A DNA stretch of 64,000 nucleotides from positions 14,146 to 78,145 of the forward strand of contig DATLSZ010000020.1 of assembly GCA_035533875.1 (NCBI GenBank), in the 5' to 3' direction. Below the pieces are notes generated by a model. The model was not told the DNA's origin. It worked only from the letters and a program-made list of their open reading frames with translations, and ran no database searches. Positions 6,422 through 57,263 of this stretch are shown here, in pieces. The translations under genes and the position numbers were made by a program. Source of the DNA: Candidatus Acidiferrales bacterium. Lineage in GTDB: Bacteria > Patescibacteriota > Microgenomatia > Levybacterales > UBA12049. Position 1 is the first letter of the stretch; the number at the start of each line of letters is the position of its first letter.

Positions 6422-6937
6422 TTATTTTCCTTTGCCTACTTTCACTTGTGCTGCCCGTAATAATTTATCATATAATAAAAATCCAATACGCAGCTCTTCA
6501 AGAACGCTTCCGTCTTCTCCAACGTCAGTAGCTATTGCTTCCATCAGATTGGGATCAAATTTCTTCCCAACCGTCTCAATTTTTGTCACCCCTTCTGCTT
6601 TCAGTACATCGAGGAATTGCTGAATACTGACTTCTACGTTCTTGTCTTGGGTATGCTGATAGGCCAATATCAGTGTATCCAAAACAGTCAATATTCGCAA
6701 GAGCAATTCTTTATTTGCCGACCTTATCCACTCACTCTTCTCATCCTGCACTCTTTTTTGTAAATTCTGGTAATCTGCCAAAGCTCTCTTGTATTTATTC
6801 TCAGCTTCCTCAATCTGCGCTTTTACTTCCTCAAGTTCATCGATAACTTCTTCACCTTCAGTTTCTTCTAAATATTCCACTTCCATTGCGTCCGTCGCAA
6901 TGTCTTCGTTTTTCTTTTTATCGTTATCATTATTCAT
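6422..6937 (-). CDS. grpE: Nucleotide exchange factor GrpE
   Basis: 171 aa. A coiled-coil N-terminus ([14 protein letters not shown]) and a C-terminal beta domain, positioned between hrcA and dnaK. Confidence 0.9.
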
Positions 6938-6972
6938 CTTTAATCTTCAATCCTAAATCTTAAATCTCGCTT
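6938..6972. repeat. Tandem heptamer array that fills the hrcA-grpE spacer
   Basis: CTTTAAT CTTCAAT CCTAAAT CTTAAAT CTCGCTT. It runs from the base after the grpE start codon to the hrcA stop. Confidence 0.8.
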
Positions 6973-7703
6973 TACCACCCCTTCGCGCTTGTCTTAATCA
7001 GATCCGCGAAGTAGCGGACTGTCGGGATGATTGATGTATAGTGCAGTCTAGCCGGTCCGAGTACACCGATCCTGCCATGAACATTCATCGGCGTTGCATA
7101 TTCGGTATAAATAAACCCATACGGACCCTTCAAGCTACCGCCAAGCTCATCTTCAATCAGCACATGGATATCCTCATCATCATTCGTGTTGGCAAAGATA
7201 CTTTCAAAACTTCCATATTCATCAAGCGCCTCAAGAAGCGTCTTGGTTACATCTATATCAAAGAACTCCGGCATCTCAAGAATATTTGCATATCCTGAGC
7301 AATAAATATCACCTTCACTCGTTACTGCGACAGCAAGTGTGTTGGTTTTCTCTGCGAGCGATCTTGTCGTTTCTTTGAGAAACCGCTGCATCCGTTCACG
7401 GTAATCCCAAACTTTTTCTTTCAACGCGACTTCTTCTACCGTTGAGAGTTCCTTTTCTTTCATCAACTCCCGAACGTAAAATTTCATCCCAGCCGCAGTC
7501 GGGATACGTCCTGCCGATGAATGCGGTTTTTTCAGGTATCCGTATTCCGAAAGCTTGACCATCTCATTGCGGATCGTCGCCGGACTTGCACTGAGATTAT
7601 GCTTTTTTTCAATTGTCTCGGATCCAACCGGTTCGGCTGTATCGATATACTCTTCGATAACGCTTCGAAGAATCTCGACTTGCCGCTGCGTTAAATTATG
7701 CAT
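6972..7703 (-). CDS. hrcA: Heat-inducible transcription repressor HrcA (short form, 243 aa)
   Basis: N-terminal winged-helix region LTQRQVEILRSVIEEYIDTAEPVGSETI...ATIRNEM..L...GYL. It is the first gene of the heat-shock operon, and a CIRCE-like site lies upstream. Confidence 0.85.
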   Translation of the reverse strand: MHNLTQRQVEILRSVIEEYIDTAEPVGSETIEKKHNLSASPATIRNEMVKLSEYGYLKKPHSSAGRIPTAAGMKFYVRELMKEKELSTVEEVALKEKVWDYRERMQRFLKETTRSLAEKTNTLAVAVTSEGDIYCSGYANILEMPEFFDIDVTKTLLEALDEYGSFESIFANTNDDEDIHVLIEDELGGSLKGPYGFIYTEYATPMNVHGRIGVLGPARLHYTSIIPTVRYFADLIKTSAKGW

Positions 7704-21271: not shown

Positions 21272-22068
21272 GCCCCGTGAATAATATCCTGTAGCTGTTT
21301 ATGCAGCTCAGGCGATGCGGTACAATAGGTAAAATATTCCTGTGTTCTTTTCAACGGGTTAGAATAGTCCAATAATTTACCATAATAATCAGTATACAAC
21401 CCGCCTGCTTCTTCAACAATTATCTGCGGTGCTATATTATCCCAAATTTTACTATTCTTATTGAGTGCGCCTCCATAACCACCCTTTGCAACCATAATGA
21501 TATCAAAAGCGCTATTACTTGAACGAAGATTTCTGATCGCCAGTACGAGATTTCCTACTATCTCAACTTCCTTTTTGGTCCCTATTGGATCTTCATGATG
21601 CCCATCTATGCCATATGCGATCAAAGAATCCCGCAAATTTATTTCCCTTGAAACAGAGATTTTTTTACCGTTGCAAAAGGCACCTTGTCCTTTTTCCGCA
21701 ATCGTTATTTCTTTAAAATAAGGTAGTGCAATCCCACCCGCAATTGGTGTATTTCCATCCAATAAACCTAGCATAATGCCATAGGTCGGGACACCACTTG
21801 CGAAATTACTTGTCCCATCGATTGGATCAACGACCCAAGTAAATTGTGAACCATTATCAATTACCCCCGCTTCCTCATCGATAACATTATATTCAGGATA
21901 GTCTCGTTTTATTTTTTCTACAATGAGTTTGCCAATTGCCAAATCCGCCTCTGTCAGAACTTGATTGGGGTCATGTTCTTTGATAAAACCCGATACGTTA
22001 CCAAACTTCGCATCAGCAATTATTGATGCATCTTCCAGAACAGATTGTATGAAGGACTGATAGTTCAT
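21268..22068 (-). CDS. suhB: Inositol monophosphatase family protein
   Basis: WVVDPIDGTSNF motif. 266 aa. Confidence 0.8.
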   Translation of the reverse strand: MNYQSFIQSVLEDASIIADAKFGNVSGFIKEHDPNQVLTEADLAIGKLIVEKIKRDYPEYNVIDEEAGVIDNGSQFTWVVDPIDGTSNFASGVPTYGIMLGLLDGNTPIAGGIALPYFKEITIAEKGQGAFCNGKKISVSREINLRDSLIAYGIDGHHEDPIGTKKEVEIVGNLVLAIRNLRSSNSAFDIIMVAKGGYGGALNKNSKIWDNIAPQIIVEEAGGLYTDYYGKLLDYSNPLKRTQEYFTYCTASPELHKQLQDIIHGA

Positions 22069-24329
22069 GCAGTTGCTATGCCAAACGACTCGAGTGTGCC
22101 GCCGCAGTATTTCATTATCATATCACAAGATTCCTGCAGAGATTTTTCCACCTGTTCCGGGGTAATATCATAAACGCCGTCGACATTGATATAGAGATTT
22201 TTTGTCGATTCCTTCACTGCTGTTCGCTGCGCGTCGCGGAAATTGAAATCGATATTGAATCCTCCCTTTTGATCAAAATATGCGATCTCAGACTCTTTAT
22301 ATTTCGTTGGTTCCGTATCTCCCAGTAGAAGTATCTCTTCATCATTTTTTGCCAAACGAAGCTCCGTTGGGAACTCAATCGTATCCAAATCAAACGCTCC
22401 GACTGAAACGCGATGCTGCATCACAACAAGATTGTATGCATCAACACAAGTGTTAATTGCATACAAACCCTTATTAAGAGCAACTCTCCTAAGAAGCGCT
22501 TCCGGACTAGGCCTTCGGGAATGCCAGTCAATCCCCATTGCTTTATATAATTTTCTATAATCCAAAACCTCAGGGAATTGTCCCAGTTGTTCGGTAGTCA
22601 GGTCCTTTAATGAATCTAGTAATTGTTGTTTTTCTTTTTCCAATTCAGGATTTGATTTGGTAATCGAAACTCCCTTTATAATAGCTACTCCAATAGAGAT
22701 CGAAGGATATTTTTCTTTCAATTCATTAGACAAAAAGAATATTTCCGGTTTATGAAAAACCTGTACTTTTTGTAATTCCTGATTCCTAATTCCTGGTTTC
22801 TGATTCATTTTTGCAACTTCCTCAAAGCGCTTCTTCACAAACTCCTTATCCAGCGAGAGGATCAACCATGCCGCTTTCGGTCCATGATCTTTACCAATCA
22901 ATGCTTTATAGATAGCGGCAAATGTTTCCTTGCCGTTTAAACCTATTTCTTTCCCCATCTCATAAATGCGTGTTTGGAAAGACTCAGCATCATTTACCGA
23001 ATCCAATTCAGCAGCAATTTTTTGTAAAAGTTCTTTCTGTTTGTCCGTCAAATCACGTGCCTTCTCTGGCAATGTTTCCTGTACCAAAAACTTTTCCGAT
23101 TCCGGAGCATACCGTTCAATCCAAACCCGCGCATATTTCGCCCATTCCGAAAGATCCGCTTTTTCAATTTGCTCCTGCATGTTGGGCATCTGCACCCACT
23201 GCGCAAGAACTGAAAAACGTACAGTTGGCGGTTTCTTTACGTCACCTATTTGAGAGAGCTCATATATCCGTGCCAATTCTTTATCCGATTTTGTGTCATA
23301 TGCAACAGCTGCCTGTTGATATTCATCAAATAACGTAGGAATTGTATTTTTTTCTGCCGGATCAAAATTAATTGCATGATTTAATTTTGTCCGTGCAATT
23401 AAAAATCTAACTAACTGCGGTGGAAGCACTTCAAGTAAATCAACAACAGATGTACCCATTCCTTTGGATGAAGACATCTTCTTCCCACCGACAAGAAAAA
23501 ATTCATGTGCAAAGCCATAGGGAACCGGATAATCCAAAACTTGTTTGCAAACTTTCTCAGCCAAATCATGTGAACCGCCTTTTGTCATATGATCCTTCCC
23601 TGCTCCTTCAACAGTTACACCGATGGCCTGCCATTTGACCGGCCATTCAATTTTCCAGGGTAGTTTGCCATTAATGGTATCTTTTGTCGCAAAGGGTGAT
23701 ATTTTTCCTTTATATCCACACCCTTTTGTCCATTTCACCGCATCAATATGACATTCAAAAGTAACATGTTCACCATCCCAATCAGTAACACGAGTCGTTG
23801 GTATTTTATGACATTGAGGACAGTAAACATTAAATGGATACCAATCATCAGCCATTTTCTTTTTATAAAGCTCTTCATAAAATGTTCTAATAAGTGCTGC
23901 TTTATCCAAACATTTTTTAATTCCTTCATTCATTTTCCCTGAAAAATATAAGTCTGTACCCCAAATAATTTTCGGATGACAGCCGATTGCATTAAAACCT
24001 TTTTCAAATTCCTTTGCATAGAACTGCGCAAATGTTCCATCACCAACGGGCGCGGGGATCATAAATAAAGGATAACCGAGATATTTTTCATAAATAGATT
24101 TATCGAGATAATGAGGCAACTTATCCAACGGATCCTGACTTTCAAAAACATAACTAAATGTCGCATTTTCTCCGGCATCAACAAGAGCTTTATAGACAAG
24201 ATCATGTGTCGTAACCGCACGCAAAGAACCGACATGGATTCTCCCTGAAGGAGTTTTCATATCATCAACCCACGCAAGTGGTAGGTTTTTCTTTTTAATA
24301 TCTTGTGCAATTTTATCAGCCCAAAACAT
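22065..24329 (-). CDS. lysK: Class I lysyl-tRNA synthetase fused to a C-terminal B3/B4 (PheT-type tRNA-binding/editing-like) domain
   Basis: The N-terminal ~520 aa carry TPSGRIHVGSLR and the KMSSSKG (KMSKS) motif in a class I LysRS layout. The extra ~230 aa include RPSPEALLRRVALNKGLYAINTCVDAYNLVVMQHRVSVGAFDLD, which is typical of B3_4 domains. Confidence 0.85.
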   Translation of the reverse strand: MFWADKIAQDIKKKNLPLAWVDDMKTPSGRIHVGSLRAVTTHDLVYKALVDAGENATFSYVFESQDPLDKLPHYLDKSIYEKYLGYPLFMIPAPVGDGTFAQFYAKEFEKGFNAIGCHPKIIWGTDLYFSGKMNEGIKKCLDKAALIRTFYEELYKKKMADDWYPFNVYCPQCHKIPTTRVTDWDGEHVTFECHIDAVKWTKGCGYKGKISPFATKDTINGKLPWKIEWPVKWQAIGVTVEGAGKDHMTKGGSHDLAEKVCKQVLDYPVPYGFAHEFFLVGGKKMSSSKGMGTSVVDLLEVLPPQLVRFLIARTKLNHAINFDPAEKNTIPTLFDEYQQAAVAYDTKSDKELARIYELSQIGDVKKPPTVRFSVLAQWVQMPNMQEQIEKADLSEWAKYARVWIERYAPESEKFLVQETLPEKARDLTDKQKELLQKIAAELDSVNDAESFQTRIYEMGKEIGLNGKETFAAIYKALIGKDHGPKAAWLILSLDKEFVKKRFEEVAKMNQKPGIRNQELQKVQVFHKPEIFFLSNELKEKYPSISIGVAIIKGVSITKSNPELEKEKQQLLDSLKDLTTEQLGQFPEVLDYRKLYKAMGIDWHSRRPSPEALLRRVALNKGLYAINTCVDAYNLVVMQHRVSVGAFDLDTIEFPTELRLAKNDEEILLLGDTEPTKYKESEIAYFDQKGGFNIDFNFRDAQRTAVKESTKNLYINVDGVYDITPEQVEKSLQESCDMIMKYCGGTLESFGIATA

Positions 24330-24344
24330 ACACTCTATTGTAGC

Positions 24345-25268
24345 CTATTTATAGCTTTGAAACAATTGCTGTGAAGTGCTATTTGGCATCAATCCATATT
24401 GCTCCAATACTTCTTTCAGCAACTGTTTATTACTATCACTCATCGGAACCAACGGCAAACGGAATACTTCCTGCATTTTTCCCATCATCGCAAGCGCTGT
24501 TTTGACTGGCTGCGGATTTGTCTCAATGAAATTAATATTCATCAAATCCAGTAGCTGATAATGCATTTTTCTTGCTTTCGCAAAATCTCCACTAAGAGCA
24601 GTTGATACAAATTTTGAAAATTCTTCCGGCACTTCATTGGACACAACAGAAATGATCCCGTCTCCACCGAGTGATAACAATGGAAAAGTCAATGCATCAT
24701 CGCCGCTCAATACAGAAAAATATGACGGTGCGTTTTTGATAATATTCATCATCTGGATAATATCGCCGGATGCTTCTTTTACCCCGATAACCTGCGGCAC
24801 TTTTTTTGCAATTGTCAAAGTCATCTCATCTGTTACATTTAACCCCGTTCTTCCCGGGACATTGTACAGAAGAATTGGCATGTTGACCGCTTCTGCAATC
24901 GCTTTATAATGAGCGATCAAACCATTCAGTGTCGGTTTGTTATAAAAAGGAGTAACATGCAGCAGCACATCTGCTCCGGCTTTTTTTGCAAGGTGAGAAA
25001 ACTCGATAGCTTTTTGTGTATTATTACTGCCTGCTCCGGCAATAACCGGAACTTCTCCTGCGACTTCCTGTGCAACAGTTTTTACGACCAATGCATATTC
25101 ATCATTTGTCATTGTCGCCGCTTCTCCAGTTGATCCACAAGGAACTATACCATTAATCCCATTTTCAATTTGGAACTGAACAAAATTTTTTAAAGCAGAC
25201 ACATCAATATCACCATTTTTTTGAAACGGCGTCACGATAGCTGTTATTGCACCTGTTATTTTTTTCAT
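24345..25268 (-). CDS. dapA: 4-hydroxy-tetrahydrodipicolinate synthase
   Basis: 307 aa. TAIVTPF..., GSTGE and the surrounding DAP gene context. Confidence 0.88.
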   Translation of the reverse strand: MKKITGAITAIVTPFQKNGDIDVSALKNFVQFQIENGINGIVPCGSTGEAATMTNDEYALVVKTVAQEVAGEVPVIAGAGSNNTQKAIEFSHLAKKAGADVLLHVTPFYNKPTLNGLIAHYKAIAEAVNMPILLYNVPGRTGLNVTDEMTLTIAKKVPQVIGVKEASGDIIQMMNIIKNAPSYFSVLSGDDALTFPLLSLGGDGIISVVSNEVPEEFSKFVSTALSGDFAKARKMHYQLLDLMNINFIETNPQPVKTALAMMGKMQEVFRLPLVPMSDSNKQLLKEVLEQYGLMPNSTSQQLFQSYK

Positions 25269-25270
25269 AA

Positions 25271-26005
25271 TTATTTTACCTCCTCAGCAAATAATTCATC
25301 AAATCGGAATAGTCCCTTTTTATTTTTGATAAACTCAGCAGCAAGCAATGCTCCCTCTGCAAAGCCGCGTCTTCCATGCGCCTGATGTGTCAGCGTTATC
25401 TCATCTGCCAAACTGTCAAAGCTTATTGTATGCATTCCGGGATTTCGTCCCGCCCTTACCGACGTAAAATGCAATTCGTCAGATTTAATTTGTCTGTCCA
25501 GTCTGCCAGTTTGCAAACTTTTTTTCCTTGCTATGTTTTTCAAAATAATTTCGGCTAGTTTTTTTGCTGTTCCGCTTGGACTGTCTTTTTTTCCACTATG
25601 GTGAACTTCAAATCCATACGTATCATATTGTTCATATCGTTCAAAAAGTTGACTCGAATATTCAATAATTTTAAAGAATATATTTGCACCAACCGAAAAA
25701 TTTTGTCCGTATATCAGGCCAATTTTATGTTTTCGAACAATTTTTTTCACCTTATCCATTTGATCATACCAACCTGTCGTACCGACAACCATATCGACTC
25801 CCAAACTAGCAACTACTGCAATATTCTCTATAACAATATCGGGAGCTGTGAAATCAATTGCCACATCAGCGCTAAGAATTCCCTCTTTATCTAACATTTT
25901 TTTTCCATCATAGCTTACCGAAACGATTGTATGTTCCGTATTTTCATGGACAAGCTGTTCAATTTCTTGTCCCATATTGCCGTAACCAATAAGTGCAATT
26001 TTCAT
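25271..26005 (-). CDS. dapB: 4-hydroxy-tetrahydrodipicolinate reductase
   Basis: MKIALIGYGNMG Rossmann start, the EVHHSGKKDSPSGTA motif region, and 244 aa. Confidence 0.85.
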   Translation of the reverse strand: MKIALIGYGNMGQEIEQLVHENTEHTIVSVSYDGKKMLDKEGILSADVAIDFTAPDIVIENIAVVASLGVDMVVGTTGWYDQMDKVKKIVRKHKIGLIYGQNFSVGANIFFKIIEYSSQLFERYEQYDTYGFEVHHSGKKDSPSGTAKKLAEIILKNIARKKSLQTGRLDRQIKSDELHFTSVRAGRNPGMHTISFDSLADEITLTHQAHGRRGFAEGALLAAEFIKNKKGLFRFDELFAEEVK

Positions 26006-26009
26006 AATA

Positions 26010-27338
26010 TTAATTAGTAAAAAGTAAACTTTTGTGCAAACATCTTACTGCTTTCCCAACTTGCGAAGACGCAACAACAAGGCTGATATTGATATCCGTT
26101 ACCCCGAATGAAATCATCTTTGGCTCAATCTTATTTAAATCTAAAACGGTAAAAATTTGTTTCATGATTTTTGGTACCCCGACTATCCGTTCACCAATAA
26201 TTGAGACAATGCCGCACGTATCCACATCAGTAACAGTAGCAAACTTTGTTAATTCTTTTAGGGCTTGTGCCAACTTCTCATCATTATCAAGCGTTATGGA
26301 AACACTCACTTCAGAAACACTGACAAGATCAACTGAGATATTATGATGAGCGAATATAGAAAAAACCTTAGATAAGAAACCTCTCTGCAGCAGCATGTCG
26401 GTTGAGTAAATATTGACAAGGGTTATATTATTTTTTGCAGTGATTGCTGCAATACGAGGAGTAATAACCGAAGGAACTTCAATCAAAGTTCCTTTATTAT
26501 TCGGATGCGTTGTATTCAATACTCGTACCGGTATATCTGCTTGCTGGGCAGGACGTATTGTGCGGGGATGAAGCACTTTTGCACCGAAAGTTGCAAGCTC
26601 TGCTGCTTCTCTATATGAAACTTTTTCTATAAGATAAGAATCGTTAATGACACGTGGATCAGTTGTCAAAATTCCGTCTACATCAGTCCAGATTTGCACT
26701 TCTTCAACATTGAGAGAATACCCAATAATTGTTGCGCTATAATCCGATCCTCCTCGGCCGAGTGTCGTAATTTTTTTATCAACCGTTGAGCCGATATACC
26801 CGGTGACAACTGGTACAATACCATTCTGCAATAACGGCAATAAATTTTTTTGAATATTTTTTTTGGTTGGTTTTGGCAAAAATTCTGCTAACCCGAAATT
26901 ATCATTGGTGACAATAAGATCTGTTGCTATTACTTGTTGAGAAGTAATACCAAAAGATGTAAGTGCTTGCGTGATAAGAAATGACGACATCCGTTCGCCA
27001 TATGAAACGATTGCATCGCTTTTTTCTTTTACATTTTGTTTTGTTTGTAATAACTGATTTATTTCACGCAAACACTGATCACTATACATATCAATTTCTT
27101 TCGGATATTCTCCCCCCCAAACATCTTTTGCCAAACGGGAATGTTTCTCTTTGATTTGTTCAAAAACTTGTACTCTATCTCTCTCTTTTAATACCGTCAA
27201 CAACAAATCAGTCATACCGCTCAAAGCGGACACGACAATCACTGGTGTACTTTCTTTTTCGCGTCGAGTTATTTCACCAATTGTTCTGATATTTTTTCCT
27301 GTACTGACGGATGTCCCGCCAAATTTCATAACAACCAT
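26010..27338 (-). CDS. lysC: Aspartate kinase
   Basis: VMKFGGTSV, a central GRGGSDYSA motif, and C-terminal ACT-like repeats. Confidence 0.9.
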   Translation of the reverse strand: MVVMKFGGTSVSTGKNIRTIGEITRREKESTPVIVVSALSGMTDLLLTVLKERDRVQVFEQIKEKHSRLAKDVWGGEYPKEIDMYSDQCLREINQLLQTKQNVKEKSDAIVSYGERMSSFLITQALTSFGITSQQVIATDLIVTNDNFGLAEFLPKPTKKNIQKNLLPLLQNGIVPVVTGYIGSTVDKKITTLGRGGSDYSATIIGYSLNVEEVQIWTDVDGILTTDPRVINDSYLIEKVSYREAAELATFGAKVLHPRTIRPAQQADIPVRVLNTTHPNNKGTLIEVPSVITPRIAAITAKNNITLVNIYSTDMLLQRGFLSKVFSIFAHHNISVDLVSVSEVSVSITLDNDEKLAQALKELTKFATVTDVDTCGIVSIIGERIVGVPKIMKQIFTVLDLNKIEPKMISFGVTDINISLVVASSQVGKAVRCLHKSLLFTN

Positions 27339-27349
27339 AATTCCTCCTT

Positions 27350-28678
27350 TTAAAACATATTCCCTTTGGGTATTATTTGTTTTTTTAAAAACTCTTTCGG
27401 ATGATCAGAGGGTCGAAGTAAAAAATATTTTCCATCATTAACCAATACTTCAGATGCCGTCTGCATACTTAAGAAATATGGCATCGCTTCACTCCAACCG
27501 TATGCGCCTGCGACAAAGATACCCATCAGATCTCCCCTCTGTGTTGATTTGGGTAATAAAACATCTTTACCCAAGATATCTATCGGCGTACACAAAGCAC
27601 CGCCGACAGTCATCTTCACGTCGTGTGCAGCATTTATTTTCGATATGTTATAAACAGGATGCGATCCATTCACAATACTCGGTCGCAAGAAATGATGAAT
27701 ACCTCCGTCAACAAGCACCATTTTTTCTCCATGAGAAACTTTTACATTGTCAACTTGTGAGATATAAATACCACTCTGCGCGACAAAATATCTCCCCGGC
27801 TCGACAGATAATGCAACGTTGTTATTTTTGATAAAGGGAAATTGTGCCAGTATCTCACCAAGATATTTTGCAATCTTATCAAGCTGCAGCGGTTCATCAT
27901 TTTCCGTATATGGGACAGCCAACCCGCCGCCAAAATCTATCGAGCGGATAGGAAAATAAGTATTGAGCTTTTGTGCAACTCGGCAGATATTTTTTATGTT
28001 CTCTAAAAAACCTTTTGTATTCAGCATATTTGCAGAATAGACATGTATTCCAAACAATTCCAGATGCGGAAGTTTCTGAATCTTTGTAATAAACGACCTG
28101 GTAATCTGTTCTTCATCGATTCCAAATTTTGATGCATCCCCTGCCATTACTTGATGCGCTGCATTTTCCACTGACCTGTTAATATTGACCCTGAGAGCAA
28201 CACGCTGTTTCATATTTTTTCTTTTGGCGATAGTATTAATTCTTTGTAATTCGTCTTCACTCTCTGCGTTGATGATATGAACTCCATAATCCAATGCATA
28301 CTCCAATGCTTCATCATTTTTTACCGGACCGGCAAATGAAATTCTTTTTGGATCTGCTCCAATTTTTTTAGCAATAACTAATTCTCCCAACGAAGCAACA
28401 TCCAAATCCGCACCGAGTTTGTATAATCCATCGACTAAAGCAAGTGCCGGATTTGGTTTGATCGCGTAATAAATCGAAATGCCAAGAGGTTTGAAAACTT
28501 GTTGTAAACTTATAAACTGTGCTCTAATTGTCGCTGCATCATAAACATAAAACGGCGGAGGAATATGCGCGGCGATTTTTTCGATTGAAACACCGCTCAT
28601 AGCGAATGTACTTTTTTCACCTTTTTTAATGACAGAAAAACTCGGACTGATCCAGCTTGCGTTATTTTTTAGCGCCAT
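27350..28678 (-). CDS. lysA: Diaminopimelate decarboxylase
   Basis: PFYVYD, YAIKPN (PLP lysine region) and GGGL are motifs of fold-type III decarboxylases. Confidence 0.88.
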   Translation of the reverse strand: MALKNNASWISPSFSVIKKGEKSTFAMSGVSIEKIAAHIPPPFYVYDAATIRAQFISLQQVFKPLGISIYYAIKPNPALALVDGLYKLGADLDVASLGELVIAKKIGADPKRISFAGPVKNDEALEYALDYGVHIINAESEDELQRINTIAKRKNMKQRVALRVNINRSVENAAHQVMAGDASKFGIDEEQITRSFITKIQKLPHLELFGIHVYSANMLNTKGFLENIKNICRVAQKLNTYFPIRSIDFGGGLAVPYTENDEPLQLDKIAKYLGEILAQFPFIKNNNVALSVEPGRYFVAQSGIYISQVDNVKVSHGEKMVLVDGGIHHFLRPSIVNGSHPVYNISKINAAHDVKMTVGGALCTPIDILGKDVLLPKSTQRGDLMGIFVAGAYGWSEAMPYFLSMQTASEVLVNDGKYFLLRPSDHPKEFLKKQIIPKGNMF

Positions 28679-29850
28679 GATGCAAATACTCCTTTCATTC
28701 GTTGTAATCCTTCTCTGATTTCTTCTTCCGATGCAGCATATGATAGACGGATGAAATTTTTTCCAGCTCTGCCAAAAGCGATTCCCGGAATAGTCACAAC
28801 GTTGACTGTTTCAATCAATTTTTTGGCAACAGTCATCCCGTCACCAAAGGCAGACACATCGACAAAATAATAAAATGCGCCGTGTGATACATGAAAATGC
28901 AGTCCGGAAATCTCCTGCAATAGTGAACCCATTAATTTTCTCCGTTTATCAAGGTGTTTATGATACAAGGCAAGTTCCTTGTCACATTCCCGTTTTAATA
29001 CAGGTAGTGCTGCATATTGCGAATCTATTGGCGCGCAGACATACGTTGCCTGCTGAGATTTCAAAGCGTCTGTGATAAAGAAATCAGGCCCGATAATCCA
29101 TCCAATCCGTTTGCCTGCCTGGCTCGCTTGTTTGGACAACCCATTCACCACAATCGTCCGTTCACTGAGTGATGAGATAGAATGATGCGTTGCTCCTTCA
29201 AAAAGACATGTTGCGTAAATTTCATCTGACAGGAAAAAGAGTGATAGATGATCAATTGTTCTTTTTACAATCTTCATCAATGCAGAAAGCGATACTACCT
29301 GTCCAGTTGGATTGGAAGGAGAATTGATCACAATGAGTTTGGTCCGGGCTGTTATTTTACTGAGAAGATCATCAACATCGATATCAAAATCTTCCATTAA
29401 TGCGTATTCTATGACATGCGCGCCCCATTTTTCCGGTAGTGTTTTATACAAGGGATACTGCAAAGCAGGAATGAGTACCTCATCACCTGGATTAAGCATC
29501 GTCTCAAAAGCGATATACAAACCGCCGGTCGAACCGGAAGTAATAATCACATTGTCCCGTGTTGTCTGGATATCAAACTGCTGTGAAAAACGATCGGCTA
29601 TTGCATCTCGAAGTTCCACAAGACCTGCATTTGGCGTATAATTTGTTTTCCCTTCATTGATGGCTTTTTGATTGGCAGCTCTGGCTTTTTTAGGCATTGG
29701 GAATTGTAACTCACCCAAACCCAAACTAACACGTGAGTATTCTCCTGTATGCTGGGTTTCTATAATTGACCGGATCAGAGACAATTCTGTTTGCGCGATA
29801 CGTTTGTTTGGGACATAATAATTTGTCAAATTTATAAGCTGTGTATTCAT
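28669..29850 (-). CDS. Class I/II PLP aminotransferase, probably the acyl-DAP aminotransferase step
   Basis: NYTPNAGL, LSDEIY and GLSKQASQAGKRIGW motifs. It lies between dapD and lysA. The substrate assignment is inferred from context only. Confidence 0.75.
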   Translation of the reverse strand: MNTQLINLTNYYVPNKRIAQTELSLIRSIIETQHTGEYSRVSLGLGELQFPMPKKARAANQKAINEGKTNYTPNAGLVELRDAIADRFSQQFDIQTTRDNVIITSGSTGGLYIAFETMLNPGDEVLIPALQYPLYKTLPEKWGAHVIEYALMEDFDIDVDDLLSKITARTKLIVINSPSNPTGQVVSLSALMKIVKRTIDHLSLFFLSDEIYATCLFEGATHHSISSLSERTIVVNGLSKQASQAGKRIGWIIGPDFFITDALKSQQATYVCAPIDSQYAALPVLKRECDKELALYHKHLDKRRKLMGSLLQEISGLHFHVSHGAFYYFVDVSAFGDGMTVAKKLIETVNVVTIPGIAFGRAGKNFIRLSYAASEEEIREGLQRMKGVFASWR

Positions 29851-30734
29851 CGTAATGCCTCCTCAAGAAGTGTTTTGAGATCAGTTCTTTTATCACGATA
29901 TTTAATGATAACCGGAACTTGTATCTGAATCCATTGTTCTAGTGCAAATTTATTATCATCTTTTGGACGTGTTCCGTTCACTACAATAGCTCCTTCCGGT
30001 ATTTCAAGTGGAGTAGCATCAGTCGCTTTATAGACTTTCTGTTTTATCAGATCATACACCGGCGTTGCCGATGTGATATTGACACCGGGGACAAGCAAAA
30101 CCCGTTTGCGAAGGATAACCCCTTCTGCGATGGAAGAATTAATACCCATGAGAACATCATCTTCAACAATACACGGACTCGCATTGACCGGCTCAAGGAC
30201 GCCGCCGATTTGCGCGCCGGCTGAGATATGACACCTATTACCAACCTGTGCACAGCTCCCAACTAATGAATGCGAGTCAAGCATTGTTCCTTCTCCGACA
30301 TATGCGCCGGTATTGATATATGCAGGAGGCATCATGATGACTCCTTTTCCGATAAAAGACCCATCCCTGATACTTGATCCACCAGGGACTATCCGAATAT
30401 TTTCAATTGTAAAATCAGTTGACCGTAATGGAAAAGTATCTTTATCGGCAAACTGAAGTGTCTCGGTTTTACCGGACATTCCGGTAATGACACCAAACCG
30501 CATACAGACCAAAATCCCTTCTTTCACCCAGGTATTCGTTATCCAAACACCCTTTGTATCTTTTTCGGCAGAGCGGATCGCACCGCTATTCAATGCGGAA
30601 ATAAACTGTTGTATGATGTCTCTTGCATTCACTGTTTTCCGTAATTTCGTAACGGATGAAATTTGGGCAAGCGTTATGATTTCTTTTTGTAATTGATTTT
30701 TAGACAAACTTTTTTTCATATTTATTGCTGGCAC
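29847..30734 (-). CDS. dapD: Tetrahydrodipicolinate N-acyl(succinyl)transferase
   Basis: Left-handed beta-helix hexapeptide region ...GAQIGGVLEPVNASPCIVEDDVLMGINSSIAEGV..., within the DAP gene context. Confidence 0.8.
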   Translation of the reverse strand: MPAINMKKSLSKNQLQKEIITLAQISSVTKLRKTVNARDIIQQFISALNSGAIRSAEKDTKGVWITNTWVKEGILVCMRFGVITGMSGKTETLQFADKDTFPLRSTDFTIENIRIVPGGSSIRDGSFIGKGVIMMPPAYINTGAYVGEGTMLDSHSLVGSCAQVGNRCHISAGAQIGGVLEPVNASPCIVEDDVLMGINSSIAEGVILRKRVLLVPGVNITSATPVYDLIKQKVYKATDATPLEIPEGAIVVNGTRPKDDNKFALEQWIQIQVPVIIKYRDKRTDLKTLLEEALR

Positions 30735-31780
30735 ACTAATTGAAATAGTGTTACTAATTTTTCCATATCAGCAAGTGCGATTGATTCATCACGTGTATGA
30801 GTATTTCGTGCACCGTCTCCGATATTAATTACTTGCAGTCCTTTTGTGTTAAAAATATTTGCATCCGATACGCTCCAGCTTTTTACCAACGTTGGTTGTA
30901 TATCCTGCTGCTGAAATACGTAAGAGATCTGTTGCACATATTGATCTTGTTTCTCAAAAAGATATGTCGGATTATCAACAGAATAATCAATATCCAACTG
31001 AACTGCGAATTTTCTTGCAGCAGTTTTAACTTTTTCAAAAAATAATTCCAGCTGTTTCTGCAGAACATTTTCATCAAAACTTCGTATCTCACCTCGGAGT
31101 GTTGCCGTTCCGGGGACTGCATTACGGACACTCCCGGCAGTAACGGTCCCGATATTTAAGATTGTTTGCTCATCAAGTTTGCCTGTGGTAACTTCCGAAA
31201 ATATGCTGCCAAGAACCGGGATGACGTTTGTCGCTTTTTCAGGAAATGCAGCATGTCCGCTTTTTCCGGTTATTACAATATCAAAACGCGCATATGCGGG
31301 AGAACCAATAACGATAGTGCCAACTGGAAGCGCGATATCAGCAACTAACCCTCTTTTTGCTGTTACTTTTGTGTAATCAAATGTTGCTGCACCCGGATCG
31401 GTTGACTCTTCACCGACAGTAAAGAGAATTTCAAGCGGTCTGTGTTTTTTTTCTTTCAATCGTTCAATAACTTCAAGAAGAACAGCAAGCGTAGATTTAT
31501 TATCAGCACCTAAAACTGTATCTCCATAAGCGGTAATGATGTCGTCTTTTACGACTGGAATAATATTTCGTCCCGGCTCAACCGTATCCATATGCGATGC
31601 AAGAAAAACCGGTTCACCAAAGCCATAAATTTTTGCAAAAACATTTCCGGTGTGATCTCTCTCAACAATGATATTTCGCTGCGTAAAATGATCAATAAGA
31701 AAATCCGCCACTGCCTGCTCATGTCCTGTCGGACTATCAATCGATACCAATTTTTTAAATGTAGTAAGTAATCTACTCAT
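30722..31780 (-). CDS. M20-family metallopeptidase, probably N-acyl-diaminopimelate deacylase (DapE-like)
   Basis: HMDTVEPG motif and the M20 layout. It is the first gene of the operon. I chose the ATG at 31780 (MSRLLTTFKKL) because the TTG-initiated extension to 31831 in the ORF track runs through the terminator hairpin. Confidence 0.75.
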   Translation of the reverse strand: MSRLLTTFKKLVSIDSPTGHEQAVADFLIDHFTQRNIIVERDHTGNVFAKIYGFGEPVFLASHMDTVEPGRNIIPVVKDDIITAYGDTVLGADNKSTLAVLLEVIERLKEKKHRPLEILFTVGEESTDPGAATFDYTKVTAKRGLVADIALPVGTIVIGSPAYARFDIVITGKSGHAAFPEKATNVIPVLGSIFSEVTTGKLDEQTILNIGTVTAGSVRNAVPGTATLRGEIRSFDENVLQKQLELFFEKVKTAARKFAVQLDIDYSVDNPTYLFEKQDQYVQQISYVFQQQDIQPTLVKSWSVSDANIFNTKGLQVINIGDGARNTHTRDESIALADMEKLVTLFQLVCQQ

Positions 31781-31793
31781 ATTTTTTCCCAAT

Positions 31794-31815
31794 AAAAAAC
31801 CCCTCGGGTGAGGGG
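31794..31815 (-). terminator. Intrinsic terminator / attenuator hairpin 14 nt upstream of the first DAP operon gene
   Basis: The minus strand reads CCCCTC-ACCC-GAGGGG-TTTTTT. It can also serve as the murB terminator. Confidence 0.7.
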
Positions 31816-31845
31816 TACTCTTTTTTAACAACGCAAAGAGATCCC

Positions 31846-31896
31846 TCAGAAGAGAGGCTTCTTTGCCTTCATTGTGTTAACAAAAATAAATTTCAT
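31846..31896 (-). CDS. Candidate 16-codon Lys-rich leader peptide (MKFIFVNTMKAKKPLF)
   Basis: ATG AAA TTT ATT TTT GTT AAC ACA ATG AAG GCA AAG AAG CCT CTC TTC TGA. There are 4 Lys codons, 3 of them within 4 consecutive codons. The Lys codons and the stop codon are embedded in the alternative pairing segments. Confidence 0.45.
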   Translation of the reverse strand: MKFIFVNTMKAKKPLF

Positions 31897-31908
31897 AATG
31901 ATTTGTTC

Positions 31909-31937
31909 ATTATAACTGAACTATGTGACGATTTCAA
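31909..31937 (-). promoter_or_regulatory. Sigma70-type promoter for the leader and DAP/lysine operon
   Basis: Minus strand: TTGAAA (31937..31932), 17 nt, TATAAT (31914..31909). It straddles the murB stop codon. Confidence 0.65.
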
Positions 31938-32883
31938 CCTCCACTTCAGGCGTGAAAGTGAAGGTCTCCTCGACCATTTCCTGGATGCGTTTGATAATTG
32001 TTAATACATCCTGCGATGTCGCGCCGCCTAAATTGTTAATGAAGTTGGTATGTTTTTCGGAAACACGTGCTTTTCCGATCGTATACCCGCTGAAACCAAG
32101 CCTGTTGATGATATATCCCATTGACACTTTGCCATGCCATTTTTCTTTTACCAAACTCCTAATATCCGGCCAGATGTCTACAACTTTTGCAACATCGTCA
32201 GATTTTTTAATGTTTTTGAATACCGACCCGCAGTTGGGATACTCCAGTGGATGATGTGTTTTGCGATAGTCGATATTGCCGGCATAGACACTCCTCGCTT
32301 TGACAAGCTCCTGCGTATCAGCAGGAGCTAGTTGAAATTGTGCTGCTGTGACTATCATATTCTTGTGTTCTTTCACGACACTGTGCCGGTAGGAAAAATG
32401 AAAATCTTCATTTTTCATCTCAAGGACATCAATATTTTTATCGTCAAACTCCAGCACTTCCGCTTGTACCAAACTGTCTTTTATCTCACCGCCGAATGCA
32501 CCGACATTCCCCCTTATCCCCGCGCCGACCGTCCCGGGCAATCCGCCGGCCCATTCAAGACCATGGAGTTTATGATTGAGTGATAATTGGATAAGCGTAT
32601 CAAGGGGCTCACCGGCAAAGGCCGTTGCTAACGTATCGGAAAAGCTGATCTGTGGCTTGGTACCGGAGCCAATTTGTATGACAACGCCGTCAAAAAAGTC
32701 ATCGGTGAAAATAAGATTAGATCCCTGACCGCAGACAAAAATCCGCTTGGGATGATGCTCTTCAACAAAATCAAGCGCTTTGAAAATATCTTTCCTGCCG
32801 GTGCAATGCAAAAAATATTGTGCCTTCCCTCCAATCCGGAACCATAATACCTGGGATAAATCAAAATCCTTATGAATTTGCAT
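31921..32883 (-). CDS. murB: UDP-N-acetylenolpyruvoylglucosamine reductase
   Basis: 320 aa. FRIGGKAQYF and an FAD-binding PCMH-type N-terminal domain with the MurB C-terminal domain. Confidence 0.88.
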   Translation of the reverse strand: MQIHKDFDLSQVLWFRIGGKAQYFLHCTGRKDIFKALDFVEEHHPKRIFVCGQGSNLIFTDDFFDGVVIQIGSGTKPQISFSDTLATAFAGEPLDTLIQLSLNHKLHGLEWAGGLPGTVGAGIRGNVGAFGGEIKDSLVQAEVLEFDDKNIDVLEMKNEDFHFSYRHSVVKEHKNMIVTAAQFQLAPADTQELVKARSVYAGNIDYRKTHHPLEYPNCGSVFKNIKKSDDVAKVVDIWPDIRSLVKEKWHGKVSMGYIINRLGFSGYTIGKARVSEKHTNFINNLGGATSQDVLTIIKRIQEMVEETFTFTPEVEVEIVT

Positions 32884-46975: not shown

Positions 46976-48004
46976 ATGAATAACCTGCTCATCATTATTC
47001 TCATCATCGCCGGATTCGGGCTCCTCTATTATTTTCTTAATAAAAAGCTTTCCTCTCTCACCAAACAAGATACAGACCAAACTCTCCTCGAATGGCTGAA
47101 GACAATGCAGCAATCACTCGAAACAACAAACAAAACACTCAACGAATCCATGCAGGCAAATTCAACAACAATGGTCAGGACGCTTCAGGAAAATTCCAGG
47201 CAGCTCAATGACCGGCTTGATAAAGCTGCCGCAGTGATCAGAGACGTTGGACATGAAGTCGGACAGATGAGTGAAATCGGCCGCAGTATGAAAGAATTGC
47301 AGGACTTTCTCAAAAGCCCCAAGCTCCGAGGCAATATCGGTGAACAAGTGCTCAAAGACTTGATCACACAAATTTTCCCCAAGAATAGTTTTCATCTGCA
47401 GTACGAATTTGCGTCCGGTGAAAAAGTTGATGCCGCAATCCAAACCGATGCAGGCATTCTGCCGATTGATGCCAAATTCCCCATGGAAAATTTTCAAAGG
47501 TTATCCAAAGCCAAAACAGAAGATGAAACGAAAATACTGAGAAAAGATTTCTCACGGGATATTAAAAAGCATATCGACGCGATAGCCAAAAAATACATTT
47601 TGCCTACCGAAGGGACGATGGATTTTGCACTGATGTATGTTCCCTCCGAATCGGTCTTTTATGAAATTGTGAACATGGACGATCTCGTCGAATATGCAAG
47701 ACAACAGCGGGTATATATCGTTTCCCCGACCACGCTTTATGCGCACTTGCAGACAATCCTTCTATCTTATGAAGGACGGAAGATCGAAGAACAATCCAAA
47801 GAAATAGTAAAGCTTCTCCGCGGACTGCAGATTGATTATGAGAAAGTCAATGACTCCCTTGATGTCTTAGGCAAACACATCGGTAACGCATCCAACCAAT
47901 ACGTCAATGTCAATAAAAGTTTCCTTGGACTCGGACAAAAACTCTCAACGATCAAGCATCTTGGCAGTACAATAGAAAAGGGCGAACAAAAAAAGCTGGA
48001 GTAG
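46976..48004 (+). CDS. rmuC: DNA recombination protein RmuC
   Basis: 342 aa. An N-terminal TM and coiled coil are followed by a C-terminal nuclease-like domain (GE.VDAAI...PIDAKFP...MYVPSE). Confidence 0.8.
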   Translation: MNNLLIIILIIAGFGLLYYFLNKKLSSLTKQDTDQTLLEWLKTMQQSLETTNKTLNESMQANSTTMVRTLQENSRQLNDRLDKAAAVIRDVGHEVGQMSEIGRSMKELQDFLKSPKLRGNIGEQVLKDLITQIFPKNSFHLQYEFASGEKVDAAIQTDAGILPIDAKFPMENFQRLSKAKTEDETKILRKDFSRDIKKHIDAIAKKYILPTEGTMDFALMYVPSESVFYEIVNMDDLVEYARQQRVYIVSPTTLYAHLQTILLSYEGRKIEEQSKEIVKLLRGLQIDYEKVNDSLDVLGKHIGNASNQYVNVNKSFLGLGQKLSTIKHLGSTIEKGEQKKLE

Positions 48005-54579: not shown

Positions 54580-55371
54580 TCAGTTACTTGCGCTTGTATA
54601 ATGACGAAGCGCATATGACCAAAACCGCAGACTGATAAAAAGCAACCCAACGCCGAAAACAAGTGCGATAACAACTCCCTGCCAAGAGAGCAATCCAAGA
54701 AGCGCCCTCCCCGGATATGTCATCATAATGCCTACCGGAATCACAAAGGTAATCAGCCCACGCAATGGTTCTTGATAAACTTCAATCGGCAATCTACCCA
54801 TCTGAGTAAGATCACGGTAAAGCATAACGGTATTATCAACTGCAGTTGATAATATACCGGTTCCAAGGACAAAAATATGAAACCCAAGAGAAATAATAAA
54901 TCCGTTCATGAGTAACAAAATGTATAAAAGAACACGCAAAACTGTCACATGATCGCTGTGCCATCCCGCAAAAATGATAAAACCGGCCGAAAGAATAAGA
55001 ACAAAAAGATCCAGCATATCGCTTCCGCCAAATAGTGGGTGAAAAAGCGACGGGAGCGGTTTGAGAAGCAGGTTATCAAAATAGCCATTCAAAATCTGCT
55101 GACGGAAACGGTAGACATTGCGGAAAAAGAATTGCGGCAGTGTATCAAGAAAATTAAATGTCGCGTAAAAGAGCACGATTTCCCAGAAGGTATATCCCGC
55201 TATTACTTTGGCTCTGTTCACCAAAAGCACAAGAAACAGCAGAAAAAATACATACCGGAGTAATTTCCCCAATAAAAATAACACCGCGCCAAAACGCGAC
55301 TGAAACGCTATCTGTGTTGTCCCGAGAGTCAACTTCCACCAAATAATTAAATATCTATTTAATCTCTTCAT
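54580..55371 (-). CDS. ABC-2-type transporter permease (uncharacterised ABC system, ABC2_membrane_6-like)
   Basis: 263 aa with 6 predicted TM helices. It is the last gene of the ATPase-permease-permease triad. Confidence 0.7.
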   Translation of the reverse strand: MKRLNRYLIIWWKLTLGTTQIAFQSRFGAVLFLLGKLLRYVFFLLFLVLLVNRAKVIAGYTFWEIVLFYATFNFLDTLPQFFFRNVYRFRQQILNGYFDNLLLKPLPSLFHPLFGGSDMLDLFVLILSAGFIIFAGWHSDHVTVLRVLLYILLLMNGFIISLGFHIFVLGTGILSTAVDNTVMLYRDLTQMGRLPIEVYQEPLRGLITFVIPVGIMMTYPGRALLGLLSWQGVVIALVFGVGLLFISLRFWSYALRHYTSASN

Positions 55372-56265: not shown

Positions 56266-56300
56266 CTAGACGCTCGACGCTAAACGCTAGATGCTTGATT
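56266..56300. repeat. Degenerate CTNNACG heptamer array that overlaps the 3' end of the ABC ATPase gene
   Basis: CTAGACG CTCGACG CTAAACG CTAGATG CTTGATT. The last units encode the C-terminal ...NQASSV and the stop codon. Confidence 0.8.
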
Positions 56301-57263
56301 TGCGAACACATCCCTAATAATCTCCTCAATATTCGGTTCTTCAATATTGAGATCTTCAACGGGGAATTGCTCAAGCAATTTGGACGCGACATAATTTGAT
56401 TTATCGCGCGGTACAATAACAACAGCTTTTAATGGGTCAAAAGATGCCACCTCACCAAGCTGTTTTAATTTCTCACGCGTCACCGGTTTCTCAAAAATAA
56501 CGGTGATAGATTTATTCTTTGCATATTTCTTCACAATATTTGCGAGCTTTCCGTCATATAAAATTTTTCCGTGATCAATGATGATGACCCGCCTGCACAA
56601 CTCCTCGACATCTTTCATATAATGACTGGTGAGAATAACTGTTGCATTAAAATTCTCGTTGTATGCTTTGACAAAATCTCGCAGTTTCTGCTGCATTACG
56701 ACATCAAGCCCGATCGTCGGTTCATCCAAAAAAAGAATTTTTGGCGTATGGATCAACGCAGCAATCAGTTCACATTTCATCCGCTGACCGAGTGACAACT
56801 TGCGCACCTGCACCTGCAGAATATCTTCAACATCCAAGAGCTCTGATAATTCCGCTACTGTTTTATTATATTGATCCGCTGGGATCTCATAAATTTCTTT
56901 ATTAAGAAGAAACGAATCAATGGCCGGCAAATCCCACCACAGCTGATTTTTTTGTCCCATGACAAGGGAAATTTGCTTGAGATATTCATGTTTCCGTTGA
57001 AACGGCGTATATCCCAACACACTGACTTGCCCACTGGTCGGATAGAGCAAACCGGTGAGACATTTGAGCGTAGTTGTCTTTCCTGCGCCGTTTGGTCCAA
57101 TAAAACCAACCAGTTCCCCTTCGTCAATTTCAAACGAGATATCATTGACCGCCTTGGCATCATAATACGTGCGGTGGAACAATGATTTCATTGAACCGGC
57201 AAACCCCGGCTCCTTCTGATGGACTTGGTAAAATTTGGTTAAATGGTTTATTTGAATTACCAT
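56280..57263 (-). CDS. ABC transporter ATP-binding protein
   Basis: GPNGAGKTTTL (Walker A), LSLGQRMKCELIAAL (signature) and LFLDEPTIGLD (Walker B). I prefer the ATG at 57263 (MVIQINHL) to the TTG at 57269. Confidence 0.9.
   Translation of the reverse strand: MVIQINHLTKFYQVHQKEPGFAGSMKSLFHRTYYDAKAVNDISFEIDEGELVGFIGPNGAGKTTTLKCLTGLLYPTSGQVSVLGYTPFQRKHEYLKQISLVMGQKNQLWWDLPAIDSFLLNKEIYEIPADQYNKTVAELSELLDVEDILQVQVRKLSLGQRMKCELIAALIHTPKILFLDEPTIGLDVVMQQKLRDFVKAYNENFNATVILTSHYMKDVEELCRRVIIIDHGKILYDGKLANIVKKYAKNKSITVIFEKPVTREKLKQLGEVASFDPLKAVVIVPRDKSNYVASKLLEQFPVEDLNIEEPNIEEIIRDVFANQASSV

Follow-up and report, generated by a model that had tools for sequence, protein, structure and literature searches.

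We analysed a 64-kb stretch of DNA (64,000 nt of contig DATLSZ010000020.1, hereafter the window) and, on its minus strand, a short leader that lies between murB and the first gene of an eight-gene lysine operon. A first-pass annotation made from the sequence had described this leader as a candidate lysine-sensing attenuator, and all of the sequence features that it listed were present on the minus strand as given, except for a one-base slip (the terminator, placed 14 nt before the first structural gene, ends 13 nt before it). The leader and the operon comprise the following features, with positions counted from the first base of the window:

31932..31937, minus strand: -35 hexamer TTGAAA, within the murB 3' end
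31909..31914, minus strand: -10 hexamer TATAAT, 12 nt upstream of the leader ATG, leaving a very short 5' untranslated region
31846..31896, minus strand: leader open reading frame (ORF) of 16 codons plus TGA, peptide MKFIFVNTMKAKKPLF, with the ATG at 31896 and the TGA at 31848..31846
31867..31869, minus strand: additional Lys codon (K10) of the leader ORF
31858..31863, minus strand: putative regulatory Lys codons AAG AAG (codons 12-13; positions -5 and -4 from the stop)
31833..31866, minus strand: helix 1:2 (predicted anti-antiterminator), P1 GCAAAGA/UCUUUGC around P1a CUCUC/GAGGG
31810..31847, minus strand: predicted antiterminator 2:3, GAGGG-AU-CUCUUU (31847..31835) with AAAGAG-UA-CCCCUC (31823..31810)
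31794..31816, minus strand: intrinsic terminator 3:4, ACCCCUC-ACCC-GAGGGGU plus U-tract
30722..31780, minus strand: PepT-like M20 metallohydrolase, first structural gene, presumed N-acyl-diaminopimelate (DAP) deacylase (protein P0001)
24345..30734, minus strand: dapD, an aminotransferase gene (class I/II), lysA, lysC, dapB and dapA, tightly packed
22065..24329, minus strand: lysK, class I lysyl-tRNA synthetase (LysRS) of 754 residues with a C-terminal B3_4 domain, 15 nt past dapA

The promoter TTGAAA-17-TATAAT (31937..31909, minus strand), which had been called near-consensus, matches 11/12 consensus positions, is the top promoter-like site in 5 kb and overlaps the end of murB (31921, minus strand). 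The leader ORF reads MKFIFVNTMKAKKPLF at 31896..31846 as predicted and holds four Lys codons, three of them among four consecutive codons; of the two Lys codons, AAG is the less used in the window (AAA 960, AAG 302). The P1 arms GCAAAGA (31866..31860) and UCUUUGC (31839..31833) enclose the inner CUCUC/GAGGG pairing at 31856..31843, and the leader stop codon spans the P1a loop and the start of the P1a 3' arm. Helix 1:2, already proposed as a pairing of the lysine segment around the stop codon, is both the minimum free energy (MFE) and the centroid fold of the window leader, whose 125 nt fold at an MFE of -32.5 kcal/mol (z = -2.57; 2/200 shuffles fold equally well). With only 13 nt from the end of the U-tract (31794) to the M20 ATG (31780), there is no promoter space between them, and the operon therefore depends on read-through of the terminator. 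The element is present once in the 64-kb window, where a covariance model built from 16 members of its family matches this site only; scanning the window for small ORFs with a terminator behind them likewise gave this Lys-rich case alone, and no other attenuators.

With good confidence, we regard the window leader as probably a ribosome-mediated transcription attenuator that senses charged tRNA-Lys. Transcription would begin a few nucleotides upstream of the 16-codon ORF. When Lys-tRNA is scarce, the ribosome would stall with AAG12 or AAG13 in its A site and cover the 5' arms of the 1:2 hairpin, so that the freed GAGGG..CUCUUU segment could pair with AAAGAG..CCCUC (antiterminator 2:3) and block the terminator; RNA polymerase would then read into M20, dapD, the aminotransferase gene, lysA, lysC, dapB, dapA and lysK. 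When Lys-tRNA is plentiful, the ribosome would reach the UGA at the hairpin loop and mask segment 2, allowing terminator 3:4 to form. If the leader is not translated, helix 1:2 would form, followed by terminator 3:4. In either situation transcription would stop 13 nt before the operon. Such a device would explain how an eight-gene lysine operon is expressed despite a terminator this close to its first gene. The use of AAG as a minor Lys codon would sharpen sensing, but AAG is also needed for P1 pairing. The sequence elements, their conservation and co-variation, the folding geometry and the tie to lysine genes are observed; translation of the leader, pausing of RNA polymerase and a response to lysine are the steps that we infer.

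To define the family, a first covariance model was built from seven leaders (the window and six close relatives) and led to more distant members; a second model, based on 16 sequences, returned the same members and matched the window once. The family comprises 17 leaders from distinct Patescibacteria-type contigs, the window included, plus four variants (loci are given by their L numbers). Six contigs with an identical M20 protein had leaders that were 100% identical and hence uninformative. Six species-level relatives (M20 identity 47-65%; L087, L170, L007, L008, L174 and L094) share the gene order and the leader, with leader peptides MTVISFIIKKAKKTLL, MNSHIVTVKKSKKPLA, MTIASVKLIGKKRFS, MKIKCIFNSKTKKRLY, MKFLLNYSKKNKKPLI and MELFLINSKKNKKPLT; all 7 close leaders have a -35/-10 pair at the same place and an ATG 9-12 nt past the -10 box. 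The ten more distant leader peptides are MQTRFIATSTKKSHS, MEIYLADSKKKTSSL, MNTNIKVVVELKKKTYS, MSILDSKKKIAS, MNLNYFNNKAKKLSI, MNILTNNKKHTTS, MKLVVSAKKHNTP, MHNSVNSKKHITL, MNLIFRLLENSKKHTTS and MNSYVSETKKKKRHD.

An ATG-started ORF of 12-17 codons is present in the Lys frame of 17/17 leaders and in each other frame of 0/17. Counted from the stop codon, Lys is found at -5 in 17/17, at -4 in 12/17, at -6 in 8/17, at -7 in 9/17 and at -3 to -1 in none, so that the small ORF and the Lys cluster, looked for in relatives, are both there. At these positions AAA and AAG interchange and Lys identity is kept, and Lys makes up 22% of leader residues versus 7.4% of residues in the window proteins. The N-terminal halves of the peptides (first 6-11 codons) are unrelated in sequence across the family. 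The stop codon lies within or beside the hairpin loop in the 17 leaders and the terminator 5' arm begins 27-35 nt past it; the whole is compact (67-78 nt, counted from where the Lys cluster begins to where the U-tract ends) and lacks any conserved unpaired pocket. When all loci were scanned for small ORFs with a terminator behind them, KK doublets at -5/-4 occurred 11 times and doublets of all other residues together 3 times. Two of the variants (L011, L102) keep the Lys cluster and have their stop seven codons later. In the other two, L096 (about 480-606) and L113 (about 1700-1822), the segment from Lys to stop continues the greA reading frame at its C-terminal end (...IDSKKTTS* and ...VSIKHNTP*), and here ribosomes finishing greA would do the sensing.

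The G-rich segment after the stop codon varies by species (GAGGG, GGGAGG, GGAGGU, GGGGGC, CGGGAG, CGGGGU), and matching changes are seen in the pyrimidine arm that precedes the stop and in the terminator 5' arm. Plain MAFFT alignments of the leaders were dropped, as the AAGAA/UUCUU helices slide between species and the paired columns fall out of register; we instead used a covariance-model alignment (N-padded) and an alignment-free chimera permutation test. Native 1:2, 2:3 and 3:4 duplexes were 3-4 kcal/mol better than cross-species chimeras, and 0-1/20000 permutations reached the native mean (0 for 1:2 and 0 for 2:3), which also held in a reduced set of 14 sequences. In the model-derived alignment, 85% of the cells of the terminator-state structure are paired (slid controls 45-64%) and 15/18 pairs are compensatory (10/12 in helix 1:2 and 5/6 in terminator 3:4), values that 0/500 shuffles reach, a count to be read as supportive and not as a true probability since these alignments are biased in favour of the structure that was modelled. 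In the antiterminator core, pairing reaches 86% across 16 sequences, versus 53-73% when slid. Co-variation is thus found in all three helices, and the 1:2 / 2:3 / 3:4 layout with Lys codons recognised in the first-pass annotation is conserved between species with the right geometry.

Unconstrained MFE folding of full leaders did not separate the two states and was dropped as a test of them in favour of masked folding of nascent RNA. For this we folded RNA ending before the terminator 3' arm under a ribosome mask that reached 12 nt beyond the A-site codon's first base, a footprint size assumed from E. coli. When the A site held a Lys codon, 17/17 leaders formed the antiterminator (-10.9 to -17.9 kcal/mol, occupying 57-100% of the terminator 5' arm). 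When it held the stop codon, the remaining structure amounted to only 0 to -3.8 kcal/mol, and 0-43% of the terminator 5' arm bases were paired. For the window leader, placing the A site on K12 or K13 gave an antiterminator of -13.6 to -14.4 kcal/mol. The same procedure applied to E. coli trpL as a control gave -15.6 kcal/mol for the regulatory codon and -4.4 kcal/mol for the stop.

The gene upstream of the leader is murB, greA or a divergent or other gene, and downstream there is always the M20 operon, sometimes with geneX first. At L007 a divergent gene separates the leader from murB, yet the leader keeps its own promoter. As the upstream gene varies and the downstream one is constant, the terminator is not simply the end of murB and the element belongs to the downstream operon. 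A class I LysRS follows M20 in the window (after the DAP block), L011, L017 and L103, and a class II LysRS in L016, L019, L024 and L035 (above the curated cut-offs of NF001756 and TIGR00499). The third type of downstream region is a DAP block after M20, which ends with lysK in the window; DAP genes between M20 and LysRS occur only in the window's clade. Counted over loci with enough downstream sequence, LysRS or DAP genes follow M20 at 15/16 leader loci versus 25/120 leader-less loci (Fisher p = 1.5e-8). The leader thus goes with M20 and a LysRS of either class, and these three make up the conserved unit. Of the tie to a DAP/lysine and lysRS operon drawn by the first-pass annotation, the association with LysRS stands, and the DAP part is restricted to the window's clade. 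The leader would then be older and wider than the DAP operon, with the DAP genes looking like an insertion into the leader-M20-LysRS unit in that clade. At L120 (976-1150; single case on a 1.6-kb contig), the leader MNSYVSETKKKKRHD and its terminator are followed 5 nt on by a tRNA-Lys(UUU) gene, on which the leader may act as an attenuator.

A PepT-like M20 gene directly upstream of a LysRS gene (class I or II), with no DAP genes, was also observed at L011, L016, L017, L019, L024, L035, L093, L099, L103-L109 and others, and this adjacency suggests a role of the M20 hydrolase in lysine supply or salvage. GeneX (L100, 2271-2996), which sits between the leader and M20, encodes about 240 residues with a Cys-rich C-terminal region and has no match in Pfam or NCBIfam; homologues were seen in L016, L024, L096, L101 and L113, and similar Cys-rich C-terminal tails in L125, L179 and L180.

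Several observations weigh against a lysine-sensing attenuator. The leader is absent despite the same DAP operon in L009, L092, L171, L172, L176 and L180, and 19 M20-LysRS loci are without it; these leader-less relatives have no alternative conserved structure and no known riboswitch in its place, and in several the M20 ATG comes directly after a -10 box. In 7/17 full-length leaders the MFE fold is 1:4 plus 2:3 and not the terminator, and with the ribosome on Lys a "terminator plus distal helix" fold equals the antiterminator or is 1-4 kcal/mol more stable in several species. Masked folding thus gives the antiterminator on Lys codons only, equilibrium energies do not clearly favour it, and because the terminator is not clearly disfavoured at equilibrium the switch must be kinetic, as in trp. 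Besides the lean of the alignments towards the modelled structure, there is the phylogenetic relatedness of the sequences, which were collected by way of M20 homology. AAGAAG doubles as the P1 5' arm, and part of its conservation may be structural. The lysine-responsive behaviour itself is predicted from sequence and folding. Lastly, the leader ORF has no Shine-Dalgarno (SD) sequence and its ATG is 12 nt past the -10 box, so that its translation must rely on short-leader initiation. Such initiation is plausible here because many window genes have -10 boxes 6-13 nt before their ATG and an SD-like motif precedes 9/48 genes, mostly within operons. Hexamers resembling a -10 box stand 5-8 nt before the ATG at starts 17655, 24329 (minus), 45005, 46976, 48828 and 63162, among others, and mRNAs with a very short leader or none seem to be the rule in the window.

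Some of these points would fit a translation-independent RNA switch, in which the choice between antiterminator and terminator is made by binding of a small ligand, a protein or uncharged tRNA to the purine-rich AAGAAG hairpin, the mini-ORF being incidental. Any RNA switch would require the three conserved and co-varying helices too, the overlap of the Lys codons with the P1 5' arm could make their conservation structural, and the missing SD sequence agrees with an ORF that is not read. We nevertheless consider a switch of this kind unlikely, as all 17 leaders retain the ATG, the reading frame and the place of the stop, although their first 6-11 codons differ in sequence, and hold no ORF in the other frames, and as AAA and AAG swap while Lys stays. 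The 67-78 nt from Lys cluster to U-tract end, lacking a conserved unpaired pocket, and the search of Rfam, with no L-box, T-box or other match, also argue against it, and the in-frame fusion to greA at two loci makes sense only if ribosomes read the segment.

If the leader is read by ribosomes, it could still report ribosome-RNA polymerase coupling or translation capacity rather than lysine, with Lys codons present merely as slow or common codons. Lys is common in AT-rich genomes, the leaders have only 2-4 Lys codons, the operon includes non-lysine genes (inositol monophosphatase and Ham1 after lysK) and some loci, such as L102, have no recognisable lysine gene. What makes a non-specific sensor very unlikely is the invariance of Lys at -5, the one position from which a stalled ribosome frees segment 2, among flanking residues that vary; the 11 KK doublets against 3 of all other residues in the locus scan and the strong association with LysRS of either class, DAP genes and a tRNA-Lys gene point the same way. 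An ordinary constitutive terminator of murB, with the operon expressed by leaky read-through or internal promoters and the mini-ORF and alternative pairings arising by chance, is highly improbable: this is the only terminator that murB has, the hairpin, with an A-tract before it and a U-tract after it, looks strong and bidirectional and promoter-like matches in the region are no commoner than in shuffled sequence, but the element occurs in three different upstream contexts always before the M20 operon, is parted from murB at L007 with its promoter kept, lies only 13 nt before an eight-gene operon for an essential pathway, and has a helix 1:2, a helix 2:3 and an ORF whose conservation and co-variation a plain terminator cannot explain.

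Beyond the attenuator in the window, we lean slightly towards a wider reading, in which the leader belongs to an undescribed, clade-wide family of Lys-tRNA-sensing attenuators in the Patescibacteria (candidate phyla radiation, CPR), whose ancestral target would be a "lysine supply and charging" module (the Cys-rich protein, PepT-like M20 and LysRS of either class) and in at least one case a tRNA-Lys gene, and which would be read by ribosomes starting on nearly leaderless mRNA.

We compared the element with known regulators. A search of Rfam with the window and 12 relatives gave nothing at the gathering score and no known leader family; the best sub-threshold leader scores were 21.6 bits for Phe_leader (gathering 55, E=0.33) and 14.5 for His_leader (gathering 49). 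The Phe_leader match was discounted as family membership and reflects similar architecture only. Searching 31600..32100 gave no L-box (RF00168) or T-box (RF00230) match even at E<=10, nor was there one in the relatives, in agreement with the first-pass annotation, which had seen neither motif. The L-box (lysine) riboswitch is the usual cis-regulator of lysC, dapA, lysA and lysine transporter genes, often acting through transcription termination, and the window leader is too short for its five helices.

Classical leader-peptide attenuators are those of trp, his, leu, thr, phe and pheST. As in E. coli trpL, adjacent regulatory codons stand at -5/-4 (WW-x-x-x-stop there, KK-x-x-x-stop here), and segments 1:2, 2:3 and 3:4 with a terminator just upstream of the first gene are common to both, like their behaviour in masked folding. 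The two differ in the amino acid sensed (Trp there, presumably Lys here), and the Trp_leader model is unmatched here. The window leader is also more compact than trpL, with a nested 1:2 hairpin and the stop codon directly after the loop, and it has no SD sequence, an ATG 9-12 nt past the -10 box in its family, a Patescibacteria-type host and an operon that includes an aminoacyl-tRNA synthetase. In Thermus thermophilus, a leader peptide with tandem Lys codons reportedly attenuates the lysine (alpha-aminoadipate) cluster. The two would be alike in that a Lys-codon leader peptide controls terminator read-through before lysine-biosynthesis genes; they differ in phylum, in pathway (alpha-aminoadipate there, DAP or none here) and in that no LysRS is known to belong to the unit there. 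Lysine-specific ribosome-mediated attenuation thus already has a precedent, one that the first-pass list of attenuated operons (trp, his, phe, leu, thr and ilv) had not included. In the E. coli pheST attenuator (pheM leader), which is not known outside enterobacteria, a leader peptide rich in cognate codons attenuates the cognate aminoacyl-tRNA synthetase, a linkage like that of the leader to LysRS here. It senses Phe where Lys would be sensed here, the pheST operon is not known to include biosynthetic genes, and there is no similarity above threshold.

T-box RNAs are roughly 200-300 nt long, whereas the window leader has about 110 nt and no T-box motif. The class I LysRS gene lysK of Bacillus cereus is controlled by a T-box leader (PMC2916919). 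Both cases would concern a class I LysRS gene and a terminator/antiterminator switch that responds to tRNA charging (PMC2916919); uncharged tRNA binds the RNA directly there, and a translating ribosome is the proposed sensor here. Full-text literature searches returned nothing on leader peptides or attenuation in Patescibacteria/CPR, and the leader may be the first such element described for this group. What is new here is the host group, the near-leaderless leader and the coupling to LysRS of either class and possibly to tRNA-Lys; the mechanism itself is classical.

Patescibacteria (CPR) are uncultured, have reduced genomes and are mostly unable to make their own amino acids; to our knowledge, almost nothing has been described of their gene regulation. 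A Lys-codon attenuator would mean that they monitor tRNA charging by a classical ribosome-based device. A clade-wide family would be the first cis-regulatory attenuation system defined in CPR, and, in organisms regarded as lacking amino-acid biosynthesis, would point to a lysine-related role for both the M20 hydrolase and the Cys-rich protein. It would also present a case of displacement, with one regulatory leader serving a class I LysRS in some genomes and a class II enzyme in others. The covariance model can be used as a marker to find the regulon in other genomes.

Within the operon, the first structural gene, referred to as dapE in the first-pass annotation, is a PepT-like M20 gene: the M20 protein is nearest to "peptidase T-like" models and structures (TIGR01883, 219 bits, below cut-off; PDB 3gb0 and 3rza), and its presumed role as DapE or DAP deacylase comes from context. 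A scan inside the operon found no convincing internal terminator, and promoter and terminator matches were no commoner than in shuffled sequence. A candidate lysK promoter, TTGTTT-17-TACAAT (24330-24365, minus strand), falls within the last part of dapA, ends 7 nt short of the ATG and scores below the threshold of the consensus scan; it could supply basal LysRS. Given this possible promoter of its own, control of LysRS by the attenuator, which the first-pass annotation had proposed, is probably partial. LysK is followed by an inositol-monophosphatase-family gene and then a Ham1-family gene. The lysine operon (22065-31780, minus strand) is without asd and dapF, and a complete pathway would require these two genes to lie elsewhere; having the full DAP route is in itself unusual for a Patescibacteria-type genome.

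The B3_4 domain of the window class I LysRS (residues 591-743) resembles that of PheT, and the class II LysRS of L016 (5001-6899) and L024 (5069-6946) carry a C-terminal DUF2000 domain, so that appended C-terminal domains occur on LysRS of both classes in this group. The closest M20 homologues all come from Patescibacteria-type metagenome-assembled genomes (MAGs). A protein identical to P0001 is labelled "Candidatus Acidoferrales bacterium" at NCBI, and its relatives and the syntenic loci are from Patescibacteria-type MAGs; the source MAG may be mis-binned or mis-labelled, and several related MAGs carry the label "uncultured Gammaproteobacteria". Some unlinked genes of the window share upstream repeats. 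The genes starting at 46976 and 48828 (plus strand) have an identical 33-nt stretch, taaacgctaaacgctctcatatgctacaatacc, in common; "gattaaag/gattgaag" repeats are common to the upstream regions of 6422-6937 and 54580-55371 (minus strand), and a motif like cactagttactattcact to those of 6972-7703 and 56280-57263 (minus strand).

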